Shown in pieces: positions 3,200 to 12,414 of a DNA stretch of 12,591 nucleotides. The notes under the pieces are model-generated. The model was not told the origin of the DNA. It did no database searches and was given only the letters and a program-made list of their open reading frames with translations. Position numbers and translations under genes: made by a program. The DNA comes from Parcubacteria group bacterium. Its GTDB lineage: Bacteria > Patescibacteriota > Minisyncoccia > Moranbacterales > GCA-2747515. Positions within the stretch are counted from its first letter, which is position 1. Each line of letters opens with the position of its first letter. The stretch spans positions 456,535 to 469,125 of the forward strand of contig JBAZXC010000001.1 in the NCBI GenBank assembly GCA_041660065.1. The letters are read 5' to 3'.

Positions 3200-4206
3200 T
3201 TATAAACCATGTGTCTGTTTATTGACGATGTGTTCTTCAAAAGTTTTGGAAAAGATTGTTTCTCCGGTGGATGGATCATTCAAAAAATACATGTAGTCAG
3301 TTTTTGCTGGTGCAATCGCCGCATCAATCGAAGCCAATGACGGATTATTGATCGGTCCCACAGGCAATCCAGGATATTTGTACGTATTGTATGGTGAATC
3401 AATTTCAATGTCCTCTTGTGAGTGTTTGATCTCCGCATCACCTTTGATATAATCGATTGTCGCATCACTTTGTAATGCCATATTGATCTGCAAACGATTG
3501 TTAAAAATGCCCGCAACCACACTCCGATCACCATGCAGCGGCACCTCTCCCTCAATAACACTCGCAAAAATGATTACATCATGCAAATTACGACCATGTT
3601 CCTTGATTGCGGTCCGTCTGCCGTCATCAACCTTTTTGTTAAAATTATCCAACATTTTTTCAATAATTTCCTGCGCTGTCGCAGTAGGCAAAAATGAATA
3701 TGTGTCTGGAAATAAATATCCTTCAAGAGACGCTCCTCGTGTAAGGAAATCGTACTTTTGATAAGTTCCGCAGGCGGATCAAGTGCGATCTTTTGAAACT
3801 CCTCCCCCGGCAATCCCTTTGCATTAAGTCGATCTTTCATTTTTTCCGCTGACCATCCCTCAGGAAAAAGAACATCAATATCTTGATCGACTTTGATCAT
3901 TGCCTGCCCATCTGTTGTCAATTTGTATACAATATCAGCAATAGTACTTTGTGGTTCGATCATATAATCACCTTCATTGAACTGTCCACGCAATTTATTT
4001 TTCCATGCATAATAATAAAAATAAAACCTGTTTGCAATCAAATCATCGTCCGCAAGCTTTTGTCCAATCACAACAATATCATCACCTTTTTGTACCGTGA
4101 ATTGAAAACCACTCGTATTGAGTGACACGCTTTTTTGTGTTCGCACATGTAAAAAAAATATACTACACACAAGTATGCCCAAAACAATGATAATCCATTT
4201 TTTCAT
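3200..4206 (-). pseudogene. mltG: Endolytic murein transglycosylase MltG/YceG, disrupted by an apparent 1-nt deletion in a homopolymer (coding-strand A4, plus-strand TTTT 3756-3759)
   Basis: Track ORF 3574..4206 supplies the N-terminus: signal anchor MKKWIIIVLGILVCSIFF and FPEGWSAEKMKDRLNAKGLPGEEFQKIAL. The other frame supplies YDFLTRGASLEGYLFPDTYSFLPTATAQEII, then track ORF 3200..3691 with ASVIEGE...VVAGIFNNRLQINMALQSDATIDY...SPYNTYKYPGLPVGPI. These are the hallmark YceG motifs. Adding one A at ATCAAAAGT would give ...AELIKKYDFLTRGASLEGYLFPDTY... as one continuous 335-aa protein. Confidence 0.75.
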
Positions 4207-7189: not shown

Positions 7190-7242
7190 AGAAAAAAGCT
7201 ATCACGGGCATAAAAGAGGTTTTTTATTTTTCTTTTGTGCCC
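7190..7242 (-). terminator. Hairpin GGGCAtAAAAGA-(13-nt loop)-TCTTTTgTGCCC overlapping the channel stop codon, followed on the minus strand by TTTTTT
   Basis: A 12-bp stem (7206-7217 pairing with 7231-7242) has one T·G wobble. The TAA stop (7226-7224) lies in the loop. The minus-strand sequence after the hairpin is GTGATAGCTTTTTTCTGC. Confidence 0.45.
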
Positions 7243-7964
7243 AACAACAACCTTTTAACACTGCCTCCTACAATACTAATAAGCAAACCAAATAATATCA
7301 ATCCGACAAATCTGGTCACGATCACAACAATTTCCCCGGCAACAGTTTGTGGCATAGTCTGTGACACACCACCAAGCAACACCTTACTGCTCCAGATCAT
7401 CGCATAGGGTATGTTGGAAAATTCCACACGACCACCCTCAAAAAACCAGATCATCGTCCCACTAAAAAGAATTGCCGTAATAAAAGTTGCAACATAGATT
7501 TGCACAGTGAGAGAAAAAAGAGCATCATGCCCGTGATCTTCAATATCATCATAGCCTTTGTGCATACGCACCAATTTTGCCAAACGTATCATACGCAAAA
7601 ACCGGAGAACACGCAAAAACCGCACGCTTTTCAAAAATGTAAGATTTGCCACTCCTAAAAACGATGGGACGATTGCAATCAGATCGATAATACCGAAAAA
7701 GCTCCGCATGTATTTTAATGGACGATCTGCCGCAATGAGCCTGCCGACATACTCTAGAAAAAAGAAAAAAACTGCACCAAATTCAATGAAAAGAAAAATA
7801 TCCGTGTAACCGGATAATCTCTGTACCGTTTCCAAAACGATCACAAAAACAGAAATGATAGTGAGAATTGCAAAAAAATCATTCACCAAAACAAATGAGC
7901 GTGCATTCACATCATTAAAGGCTTTATTACATATTTCTTTTATCGTACGTTTTTGCATGCTCAT
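7224..7964 (-). CDS. Voltage-sensor-containing 6TM cation channel (Ion_trans superfamily, Kv/NaChBac-like)
   Basis: Six predicted TM helices are present. The S4 helix is VRFLRVLRFLRMIRLAKLVRM, with Arg/Lys at every third position. The pore region IPYAMIWSSKVLLGGVSQTMPQT lacks a canonical TVGYG or TxExW selectivity filter. ATG is at 7964. Confidence 0.7.
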   Translation of the reverse strand: MSMQKRTIKEICNKAFNDVNARSFVLVNDFFAILTIISVFVIVLETVQRLSGYTDIFLFIEFGAVFFFFLEYVGRLIAADRPLKYMRSFFGIIDLIAIVPSFLGVANLTFLKSVRFLRVLRFLRMIRLAKLVRMHKGYDDIEDHGHDALFSLTVQIYVATFITAILFSGTMIWFFEGGRVEFSNIPYAMIWSSKVLLGGVSQTMPQTVAGEIVVIVTRFVGLILFGLLISIVGGSVKRLLLGTKEK

Positions 7965-8052: not shown

Positions 8053-11052
8053 TTATTCTTTCGCACATGTCAACACATTCAATAATGTTATATATTCTTC
8101 TACTATATGATCACCATATTTATGATCAATTTCCCGCTTCAAAAAATTCCCCGAAAGAATATCCTGCGCAAAGTTATTGATCTCTTTTTTGATCTGTACA
8201 ACATCTTCCACAGAAACGAGGATCTTCTCTCGTTCATACGCATGCGTTTGCGGATGTGGTTCAATAAAATCTAGCAAACCGGCTGTCATGTTATACTGTC
8301 CATCATGATAGCGATCCAACAATAGTTTATAAAAAACAACCTGTCTCTTGAGAGCAATGCGTTCCTCTTTTTTCTTTTTGCTCCATGGTTTTCCGGATTT
8401 ATAGTCAACCACGACAACTGTTCCATCCGGCAAAAGTTCCATCTTATCAACCACGCCGGTAAGAAGAATTTCATTGCCATCGTCCAATGTAAACGGTATA
8501 CCTGTGATCTTTTTTTCCAATTCTACATTGATTGTGAACTCCTGCGCATATTTTTTGTAATATCCACGCAATGCTTCTACACTACTCTTTTTTATCGCTG
8601 CACTATATTCACGTGGCACACGCATGACATTGATCATGCGTTCAAACTGCGCGATTAACTCATCTTCTGAGAGAATTGCTCCGCGAGATTTTGATAAAAC
8701 AAAAAATTTTTCCAATGCGGCATGCATGATCGATCCCTTGATCATCGTTTTACTTTGCACACTTGGCAATCGCACGAGATTACGAAAAAAGTACTTGAGC
8801 GGAGAATCATAATAATTATTGAGAGCCGTTGCGGATAACGGCGTTTGCAAAAATTTATCCCTGATGAATTCCACTGATACCAATGAGAGCGCTTGACTCA
8901 TGCGTGGCAGAAAAAAAATATCATATTGAGCACTCATTGGTGTTTCCATGTCGATCAGATCAGCAGAAAGATCAGAAATAAAAAGTGATGGTGATTTTTC
9001 ACGACCGGCATGATCGTGTTGTGCATACGTAATTGTCAACGACTTTTTGGCTCGCGTAATTGCCACATAGAACAATCGCCTCTCATCCTCCATGTCGCCT
9101 TCACATGTATCGATCGGTAATTGAAAACGTTCCTTTTTCTTTTTTCCGCCCCACAATCCATGCACGACGTTTGTGATATACACATGCTCGAATTCCAATC
9201 CCTTTGATCCATGTGCTGTCATCAACTGTACGCCACGACCATGAGCATTTCGCACAACATCCATCGAAAGACCATACTTCTCGAATGTATCCAAGTAGAT
9301 GATCAGATCATGTAAAGCAAAACCCTCTCTTTGCATTACGCATTCTTTTAACTCGTCAAACAATCTACCGAGTTTTTCCAGGGTGGATATATGATCTTTT
9401 CGCGAAAGAATCAATGGCAAAAATCCGGATTCCCGTATGAGATTTTCAAAAAATTCCACGAGAAACATCTCTTGCGAAAGTTCTTTTTGTTTTTTGATAA
9501 ATGCGTGCAACGCCAAAACAGATGCTTTCTTTGCATTTTCTTTTGCTAAAAAAAAAGTGTACAAACCTTGCATGCTTGGTGCATGTCGATATGCGTCAAG
9601 CAATGTGATCGCATCATCAATATCAACGCGGGAAAGATCCGACAGCAGCAGTGCGGCGAGATTTTGATCATTTAGCGGATCATCAATCACCGTGAGAAGT
9701 GTGATCAATTTTTTAATATCATTGTCTTGCAGTGCATTTTGTCTAGTGATGAGGTCAAAAGGGATATTCAGTTTTTCAAAGACCTCTTTGATATATATTA
9801 CATTGTGATGTTCTCTATAAAAAACGGCAATATTGGAAGCCTCGACACCACGCTCCAATTTACTTTTGATATCTTCTGCGATAGAAATAAGTTCATCCTT
9901 ATATGTCTTAAAACGAATGACGCGAATGTGCGCATCCTCTTTTTTTATCGCGGTCAACTCTTTGTGATTTTTATCACTATCGCCACTGCTAATGAGCGTA
10001 TGAGCTTCATCCAAAATGCCCTGTGCACTGCGATAATTATCTTCCAATTTGATCACGATCGCCTTTGGATATTTTTTTTCAAACCGCAAAAAATTCTCCA
10101 CGCTCGCCCCCTGAAAACGATAGATCGCCTGTTTGTCATCACCAACCGTAAAAAGATTTGGACTGTCCCCAATATACAGCTGATCGGTCAATGCTTCAAT
10201 GATACGATTTTGCCCATCATTTGTGTCCTGATGTTCATCCACCAATATATAGTGATATTGTTCCCGCAAAATCGATGCAAATTCTTCATTTTTTTCCGCA
10301 ACAATAATAAATTGCATGATCATATCAGCAAAATCATAAAGACCCTCTTCTTGCAAATATTGCTGATATGCGCGATATATTTTTTCTAATTCTCTATTTT
10401 TTTCAACCGGATGCAATACACCGATCTTTAAATCACCTTTTCTATTGTTCTTTGTCGCACGTTTGAAATATGATTCTGGATCCGCCAGAATGGCTTTTTC
10501 CTGCAAATCAATACGCACGAGAAAATCATCCGGTGAGACACCCTCTCGTTTTAACTGATCAATCGCCCACAAAATGTCCTTGGTATAATGATGATCACTG
10601 GCAAATGTGGTCAGTACCGCAAAATCATTTTCTGAAAGAATTTTTTCCACAATATGGATCCTCTCAATTTCTGACGCAACATGTGCATATGCAATTGCCG
10701 GAAAATAATCTGCAAAACGCGCAATATGATCTTCACAAAAACTATGAAACGTACAAATATTCACCCGATAGGCATCTTCCGCACCGATAAACATTGCCAA
10801 ACGCGCACGCATTGCCATAACACCAGCGTTTGTAAATGTCAGTGCCAAAATATTTTCCGGTTCAATCCCAGCTCCAGAACTGCGAAGAATATTGGCAATA
10901 CGCAACGTTAATATCTGCGTTTTGCCCGTCCCCGGTCCGGCAATGACAATTACAGGTCCTTCAATCGTATCAACAGCTTTTTTTTGTTGTACATTGAGAA
11001 GCTCATATTGCTCATTAAATGCATGAACAAAATCATTCTTATTTTTCTTCAT
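8053..11052 (-). CDS. UvrD/PcrA-family SF1 helicase fused to a C-terminal PD-(D/E)XK (RecB-like) nuclease domain, AddA-like
   Basis: Walker A is AGPGTGKT and motif Ia is TFTNAG. The DExx motif is ILVDEHQD, followed by LFTVGDDKQAIYRFQGA. Motifs V/VI are LMTAHGSKGLEFEHVYI and YVAITRAKKSL. The C-terminal nuclease domain carries GVVDKMELLPDGTVVVVDYKSGKP and the QxxxY motif QVVFYKLLL. Total length is 999 aa. Confidence 0.85.
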   Translation of the reverse strand: MKKNKNDFVHAFNEQYELLNVQQKKAVDTIEGPVIVIAGPGTGKTQILTLRIANILRSSGAGIEPENILALTFTNAGVMAMRARLAMFIGAEDAYRVNICTFHSFCEDHIARFADYFPAIAYAHVASEIERIHIVEKILSENDFAVLTTFASDHHYTKDILWAIDQLKREGVSPDDFLVRIDLQEKAILADPESYFKRATKNNRKGDLKIGVLHPVEKNRELEKIYRAYQQYLQEEGLYDFADMIMQFIIVAEKNEEFASILREQYHYILVDEHQDTNDGQNRIIEALTDQLYIGDSPNLFTVGDDKQAIYRFQGASVENFLRFEKKYPKAIVIKLEDNYRSAQGILDEAHTLISSGDSDKNHKELTAIKKEDAHIRVIRFKTYKDELISIAEDIKSKLERGVEASNIAVFYREHHNVIYIKEVFEKLNIPFDLITRQNALQDNDIKKLITLLTVIDDPLNDQNLAALLLSDLSRVDIDDAITLLDAYRHAPSMQGLYTFFLAKENAKKASVLALHAFIKKQKELSQEMFLVEFFENLIRESGFLPLILSRKDHISTLEKLGRLFDELKECVMQREGFALHDLIIYLDTFEKYGLSMDVVRNAHGRGVQLMTAHGSKGLEFEHVYITNVVHGLWGGKKKKERFQLPIDTCEGDMEDERRLFYVAITRAKKSLTITYAQHDHAGREKSPSLFISDLSADLIDMETPMSAQYDIFFLPRMSQALSLVSVEFIRDKFLQTPLSATALNNYYDSPLKYFFRNLVRLPSVQSKTMIKGSIMHAALEKFFVLSKSRGAILSEDELIAQFERMINVMRVPREYSAAIKKSSVEALRGYYKKYAQEFTINVELEKKITGIPFTLDDGNEILLTGVVDKMELLPDGTVVVVDYKSGKPWSKKKKEERIALKRQVVFYKLLLDRYHDGQYNMTAGLLDFIEPHPQTHAYEREKILVSVEDVVQIKKEINNFAQDILSGNFLKREIDHKYGDHIVEEYITLLNVLTCAKE

Positions 11053-11281
11053 ATTCCGCTTCTTTTATTTCATTCACTTTTGTCACATTTCGCTTGAACA
11101 AATGTCCGAGATCAATACCAAAATATGCCAATGAGGATAAAAGAAGCGTTGTGGCTGTTACCTCATCCACATTACCTATCAACGGAATATTATCAGGTAA
11201 TATTTCAAAAAGGCCTGCAGTCGGATTGATCAAATACAGAAAAGCCAATACACCAATAATGCCAACGATGATCGATTTCAT
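11039..11281 (-). CDS. DUF1232/YkvA-like small membrane protein
   Basis: A TM helix is followed by PDNIPLIGNVDE, matching the DUF1232 D-x-IP-x-IG-x-x-D(D/E) signature. Its 3' end overlaps the helicase start by 14 nt, which suggests translational coupling. Confidence 0.6.
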   Translation of the reverse strand: MKSIIVGIIGVLAFLYLINPTAGLFEILPDNIPLIGNVDEVTATTLLLSSLAYFGIDLGHLFKRNVTKVNEIKEAEYEEK

Positions 11282-11382: not shown

Positions 11383-12414
11383 TTACAAAGCGATCATCTC
11401 AGCATCTCGTTGTGATTTTACAATATTGATAAATTTAAATTCTCGTAACAACATAAAGCCAAAACGTGAAAAAATGACCGCAAAAAACTTTCCGATAGTA
11501 GCTAAAGATAAAACAATGAGAAAGAAGATTGCCGTAAAAAATTCTGCCCGATGATCAAAAAGAAAATCATTTGACATGATCAAATGCTGTAATTGCATAG
11601 AGATCAGTTCCGATATTACACAGGAGGCCAATTCATCACCGCGAACTTCCCGTCCAATTTTTTCTGATATACCGCTTTTAATATCTTCTATTGCTTGTGC
11701 CTCTATATTGTTCTGCACCTTTTCGATCGCGATACCCATGCTACCGGCCCACCGTACGATCATACCTTGATCCTCTACTGAAACCCCTGCATTTTTATTT
11801 TCTTTGGTATATACATCACGAATTATGAGCAGGAGAAAATTATCTACCGTCATTGTATCAAGCGTGATATTTTCGACATTACTTTTTTTGATGACCATAT
11901 CAGTAAGCACATTAATGATCTTTATGTGCTCATTTGCATCAAAAACATAGTTTTCATTGCCTTTCAACAAAAAATAATATTGACTTGTCACGACACAGAC
12001 CATCGCAAATCCAACATAAAAGATCCCGCTCCGCACGATCGTCTTCATGTCAATCATCAAAAGGTTAAAAAGCGTATATCGCATTGTGAGCAATCCATAC
12101 ATGGCAACAAAAACCATTACGATCACAACCACAATGTGCCCCAATGTCGGTGTAAAGATTATGCTTGGCAAGAAAGCGATGAAAACGATCGGTGAAATTA
12201 ATTTTTTAACCCCAACCGTTACAGCAAAAATGGACAATAATGCAGCAAAGATCGTTGCGCTAAAAAATGGCACGAGCCATGCGCTTTGAGATTCTCCATT
12301 CATCGCGCGCGTCACGATCAGAAAGAAAATCGCTCCACAGGCCGTGATCAAAACAGCAAATACCATATCGATCGTGCGTATTTTTTTTGGATTCATTCCT
12401 TCTGCCGCACCCAT
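11383..12414 (-). CDS. Multi-pass membrane protein of unknown function (about 5 N-terminal TM helices, a ~140-aa soluble domain, and a C-terminal TM)
   Basis: The hydrophobic segments are clear, for example IDMVFAVLITACGAIFFLIV and FFTAIFFLIVLSLATIGKFFAVIF. No family was recognised. Start is at ATG 12414, or at 12396. Confidence 0.55.
   Translation of the reverse strand: MGAAEGMNPKKIRTIDMVFAVLITACGAIFFLIVTRAMNGESQSAWLVPFFSATIFAALLSIFAVTVGVKKLISPIVFIAFLPSIIFTPTLGHIVVVIVMVFVAMYGLLTMRYTLFNLLMIDMKTIVRSGIFYVGFAMVCVVTSQYYFLLKGNENYVFDANEHIKIINVLTDMVIKKSNVENITLDTMTVDNFLLLIIRDVYTKENKNAGVSVEDQGMIVRWAGSMGIAIEKVQNNIEAQAIEDIKSGISEKIGREVRGDELASCVISELISMQLQHLIMSNDFLFDHRAEFFTAIFFLIVLSLATIGKFFAVIFSRFGFMLLREFKFINIVKSQRDAEMIAL

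Follow-up and report, generated by a model that had tools for sequence, protein, structure and literature searches.

MltG is a membrane-anchored lytic transglycosylase of the YceG family that cuts nascent peptidoglycan strands. The protein is built from a transmembrane region, then a LysM domain and a catalytic domain, and in the case of the E. coli enzyme the E218Q variant is catalytically inactive (PMC8135044). The locus described here lies in a stretch of 12,591 nucleotides that was analysed as a whole and is referred to as the window: on its minus strand, positions 3200..4206 hold a single mltG gene (YceG/MltG family) that is broken once and lies in two reading frames. When compared with E. 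coli MltG (PDB 2R1F) and Listeria Lmo1499 (PDB 4IIW), this gene has a full-length family profile, a length of 335 aa, the order of domains and an invariant E-x-E motif in common with the described proteins, but differs from the family in that its frame breaks after codon 148, where one T is missing; once repaired, the sequence displays no other departure.

One mltG gene in two reading frames

The region was assigned to an endolytic transglycosylase gene with a one-base gap by means of PF02618, TIGR00247 and the closest homolog (P0001; 335 aa, 90% identical), with the gene measuring 1007 bases in the window and 1008 in the intact allele. The N-terminal part comprises codons 1–148 (M…PPAEL; 3763..4206, minus strand) and consists, as judged by translation and alignments, of a hydrophobic anchor and then a LysM-like region; it aligns to 18 homologs without gaps. 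Residues 4–19 (WIIIVLGILVCSIFFL) are hydrophobic on direct reading of the translation and represent a putative N-terminal membrane anchor. The open reading frame to which this part belongs (3574..4206, 210 aa) begins with MKKWIIIVLG…DPPAELIKSTISLHEERLL…, includes …GLPGEEFQKIALDPPAELIKSTISLHEERLL… and ends in an out-of-frame tail of 62 residues (IKSTISLHEERLL…VICMM and a stop; 3574..3762, minus strand, from the translation). The other frame reads …KYDFLTRGASLEGYLFPDTYSF… and …YQKYDFLTRGASLEGYLFPDTYSF…THGL*, ending at the stop at 3200, and holds the C-terminal part of the protein: codons 149–335 (YQKYDFL…THGL and stop; 3200..3763, minus strand), identified as the catalytic domain by Pfam and by alignment to the PDB entries 4IIW, 2R1F and 8YOA.

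The Pfam YceG profile is divided between the two pieces, with positions 1–100 matched in the first and 103–274 in the second; on the repaired protein, PF02618 is matched in one stretch (1–274 of 275) with a score of 260.5 bits (cut-off 32.4). Using TIGR00247 (cut-off 103.4 bits), the intact allele (P0121) reached 215.8 bits, with the N-terminal fragment remaining below this cut-off (41.4 bits) and the C-terminal fragment lying above it (143.4 bits). Residues 38–333 can be aligned to residues 43–344 of Lmo1499 (4IIW). The acidic motif E-G-E was located by translation and alignment at residues 219–221 of the intact protein (3545..3553, minus strand): both E219 and E221 are invariant in the family alignment and are aligned with the stretch 'asiieke' (IEKE motif) of the E. 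coli structure 2R1F, and the counterpart of E. coli E218 is either E219 or E221. Each of the 120 best homologs is a protein of ~335 aa encoded in a single frame. As read from its sequence, the window gene is a regular MltG/YceG member by profile, catalytic-glutamate motif and architecture. An initial sequence-only reading had described mltG on the minus strand with one break within 3740–3790 caused by one missing base, and in this it is borne out by open reading frames, translations and Pfam pieces alike. It had also considered that the tail of the N-terminal frame might be conserved in orthologs: this is not the case, with STISLHEERLLKDIYFQTHIHF sharing no 6-residue word with any of the 120 homologs.

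In the source MAG, on a contig of 469,125 bp, mltG has been deposited as MFA5986174.1 (210 aa) and MFA5986173.1 (163 aa), each named endolytic transglycosylase MltG and each entered as a separate protein, so that the record lists neither a single pseudogene nor a frameshifted gene; the neighbouring PCMT gene is WC819_02400 (MFA5986175.1; locus-tag prefix WC819). The IMG version of the contig exhibits different fragment boundaries, giving 151 and 184 aa, and the mltG fragments have been placed in protein clusters in the manner of genuine short MltG proteins. A split mltG in a public MAG can lead to miscounts in presence/absence or pseudogene surveys of the cell-wall genes of reduced-genome Patescibacteria.

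Position of the missing base

The interval in which the frame can be restored is short: a TGA codon in the C-terminal frame (3779..3781, minus strand, from the translation) forms its upstream bound, so that the repair must fall between 3778 and ~3757. The break had previously been placed exactly at a plus-strand TTTT run at 3756–3759, and this run is indeed present, reading AAAA on the minus strand. An extra A inserted here restores the frame and affords a good Pfam score, and the protein alignment is unable to place the gap, since positions 149–150 vary across the family (at position 149, 34 of the 120 homologs have Y and 14 have I). The site was instead determined at the DNA level, by aligning the window to L001 and to the four closest loci; the relatives were L018, L019 and L021, all encoding P0001, and L001, which encodes P0002 (77% identical). 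This alignment displays a single gap 4–5 bases upstream of the AAAA run: the relatives read GAACTTTATC and L001 reads GAATATTATC, where the window reads GAAC-TTATC. The AAAA run itself consists of four A in every relative aligned (ATCAAAAGT/ATCAAAAAT), and 3756..3759 (minus strand) is four bases long in the window, L018, L019, L021, L001 and L022, the last of these being a contig from a second assembly. Thus, the defect lies outside this run, and an extra A at this point is ruled out because the run is unchanged in the intact relatives.

In the lesion, CTT TAT (Leu148-Tyr149) has lost one T: at 3763..3764 the minus strand carries coding TT, with AA and not AAA on the plus strand, where L022 and all close relatives carry TTT. 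Placement of the gap is ambiguous within plus-strand 3762–3765, and the TT/TTT run lies inside the permitted repair interval. In the comparison with orthologs that had been proposed, the close relatives all exhibit TTT and one reading frame. Correct repair gives CTT TAT CAA AAG TAC, which encodes L Y Q K Y, and the true junction reads …PPAELYQKYDFL… and not …ELIKKYDFL…; the repair offered previously (ATC AAA AAG TAC, encoding I K K Y) did restore the length of 335 aa, but two of its residues are wrong. The difference matters for any inspection of reads: checking for T4 versus T5 at 3756–3759 is misleading, as T4 is expected there in the intact and the broken allele and would falsely suggest a genuine frameshift, while the informative position is 3763–3764 (A2/A3). 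A frameshift that is assigned to the nearest visible homopolymer can therefore be misplaced.

An intact allele in a second assembly and the origin of the difference

A second record of the locus was found via the flanking PCMT protein: L022, a contig of 12,466 bp assembled by Logan from SRA run SRR18595301, carries an intact YceG gene of 335 aa adjoining PCMT, and its MltG (P0121) reads …PPAELYQKYDFLTRG…. When the reverse-complemented window was compared with L022 by BLAST, the alignment spanned 12,466 columns and contained no mismatch and a single gap. The sole difference over 12,465 aligned bases is the T at 3763–3764, L022 reading GAACTTTATC at this site, and given that there is no other difference in 12.5 kb the window and L022 represent the same clone. 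Among the public assemblies that have been indexed, just two contigs, the 469,125-bp MAG contig and L022, carry the proteins flanking mltG (PCMT, helicase and RNase H-like), with intact MltG on L022 only and the fragments on the MAG contig only; the organism has thus been recorded twice, in one broken and one intact state, which suggests two assemblies from the same or a sister sample. The two assemblies also agree in every homopolymer of at least 5 bases (174 of 174, including 30 runs of 7–9 bases), and within mltG one 8-base run and five 6-base runs are the same in both. A scan of a genome collection in which each GTDB species is represented by a single genome gave L001 (77%) as the nearest locus, the window's own genome not being among the matches, and a literature search on the run accession SRR18595301 returned no paper mentioning the run. 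Scans of JGI metagenome contigs for either allele gave no match; a control pattern for L018 was also unmatched, and hence these scans are silent on allele frequencies. The unmatched control can be explained either by absence of metagenome 3300034342 from the JGI contig collection or by mishandling of gapped patterns.

The state of the gene was assessed by comparison with L018, which gave a dN/dS of 0.09 for the whole of mltG, 0.108 upstream of the break and 0.078 downstream. These ratios show that, along the lineage, strong purifying selection has acted on both halves of mltG. The repaired protein retains every column that is invariant in 19 family members, its alignment to 18 relatives is gap-free around the junction, and no further disabling changes were found in mltG relative to the intact allele. 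The absence of further lesions, together with the low dN/dS, argues against the gene being an old pseudogene.

We infer that the missing base is probably a consensus error of the deposited MAG rather than a trait of the organism. The uncultured Parcubacteria-group (Moranbacteria-like) bacterium would possess an ordinary, functional-looking mltG, and one T of the TTT at Leu148-Tyr149 would have been dropped during assembly or polishing, with the result that two MltG fragments were annotated; the organism itself would most likely carry the intact 335-aa gene, as found in the assembly of SRR18595301. Sequencing or assembly error had been one of the options put forward on first reading, and it has emerged as the best supported of these through the other assembly, which is identical over 12,465 bases and has the gene intact. 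The locus resembles the split-gene artefacts of draft genomes and MAGs in its one-base indel, two CDS of the same name, an intact allele elsewhere and no secondary decay. Technology-driven homopolymer errors typically favour longer runs; here, in contrast to typical split-gene artefacts of this type, the affected run is just 3 bases long and the longer runs are unaffected. Since a 3-base run is affected and all 174 runs of at least 5 bases agree, the error would not be a classical length-dependent one, but rather a sporadic error of assembly or polishing. A lesion in so short a run would also fit a real point deletion derived from a subpopulation.

Such a deletion is the strongest competitor to a consensus error: a genuine, very recent and unfixed loss of one base from mltG in the MAG population, with the intact allele in the population sampled by SRR18595301. 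We regard this as unlikely, although it has points in its favour, as the run is too short for a typical homopolymer miscall and the long runs all agree between the assemblies. MltG is dispensable in some bacteria, including E. coli, and a null allele could for this reason segregate. Were the deletion real, function would be abolished, the break parting the anchor and LysM-like region from the catalytic domain: translation would yield a LysM-like stub that is anchored in the membrane and ends in 62 residues of nonsense sequence, and any catalytic domain still produced would lack the membrane anchor. Against this stand the identity to the intact allele over the remainder of the 12.5 kb, which points to the same clone, the strong purifying selection on both halves (dN/dS 0.09) and the intact state of the gene in 120 of 120 relatives. 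Furthermore, a real deletion would require that, in a gene that is retained universally, a null allele has reached consensus frequency in one data set and is absent from the other, and technical errors are a priori commoner than null alleles at consensus frequency. That a clone of this reduced-genome Parcubacteria lineage has just lost the peptidoglycan strand terminase MltG and coexists with an intact clone is accordingly a doubtful proposition; if true, it would capture, in an episymbiont-type bacterium, gene loss in progress or defects of cell-wall remodelling that are tolerated. With regard to genome reduction, a null allele of such recent origin in a conserved peptidoglycan enzyme would be mildly interesting and would not be surprising. 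On present evidence, the split is probably not a real biological feature and its biological significance is small.

Slip-strand phase variation, in which a reversible switch in run length would turn MltG on and off, had also been suggested, and such a switch would take the form of a one-base difference in a run, as seen here between the two assemblies. A one-base on/off change within a coding mononucleotide run is also what the locus shares with contingency genes, for example those of Neisseria, Haemophilus and Campylobacter. Slippage at contingency loci becomes frequent from tract lengths of ~7 or more, and the run at 3763–3764 falls far below this with 2 versus 3 bases; the 4-base run that had been named is invariant in the relatives, which exhibit neither conservation nor expansion of a tract at the site. 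Moreover, the longer runs are unchanged between the assemblies (the 8-base and five 6-base runs of mltG and the 30 runs of 7–9 bases in the window), and the gene encodes a housekeeping cell-wall enzyme, unlike the contingency genes with their long tracts. Phase variation is thus highly improbable. A programmed -1 ribosomal frameshift or transcriptional slippage that would give full-length MltG from the broken gene is the least credible account of all: the second frame lies at -1 to the first and overlaps it, but no X XXY YYZ heptamer is present within 3778–3757 (the frame-0 codons are GCG GAA CTT ATC AAA AGT), the A/T runs are too short for RNA polymerase slippage, and the two-frame arrangement is absent from L022 and all relatives (120 single-frame homologs) and hence is not a conserved signal.

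Neighbouring genes and related loci

Besides mltG, the window holds eleven genes, all of them intact and in synteny with those of relatives, and scans of the window for tRNA genes and Rfam families gave no matches. A single-chain UvrD/PcrA-type helicase of 999 aa with a C-terminal PD-(D/E)XK nuclease is encoded at 8053–11052 (minus strand; PF00580, PF13361 and PF12705), representing an AddA-like fusion. The end of an 80-aa open reading frame (11039–11281, minus strand), which has no Pfam or NCBIfam match and is called as a gene in L022, shares 14 bases with the start of the helicase gene. At 11383–12414 (minus strand) lies a gene for a protein of 343 aa with several hydrophobic stretches, for which no Pfam family is on record and no NCBIfam match was obtained; this gene is also called in L022.

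The two closest genome records, L001 (DYDB01000001.1) and L002 (CAZHQB010000018.1), with MltG identities of 77% and 64%, carry the title 'Micavibrio sp.', which denotes an alphaproteobacterium. The label of the window's source is Parcubacteria group, and those best-matching homologs that bear a name are labelled Moranbacteria or Patescibacteria. The Micavibrio labels of L001 and L002 look like taxonomic misassignments, and L005 and L008 ('uncultured Gammaproteobacteria') may be similar cases. The window further encodes, at 7224–7964 (minus strand), a voltage-gated-channel-like protein of 246 aa (Ion_trans, PF00520), found here in a reduced-genome bacterium, whose NCBIfam match, to the model of an archaeal hyperpolarization-activated K+ channel, is weak (27 bits, cut-off 300). 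In the 90%-related locus L018, two extra genes directly upstream of the Ion_trans gene encode a TPR protein of 460 aa and a protein of 471 aa without Pfam match, the position that is occupied by the helicase gene in the window.
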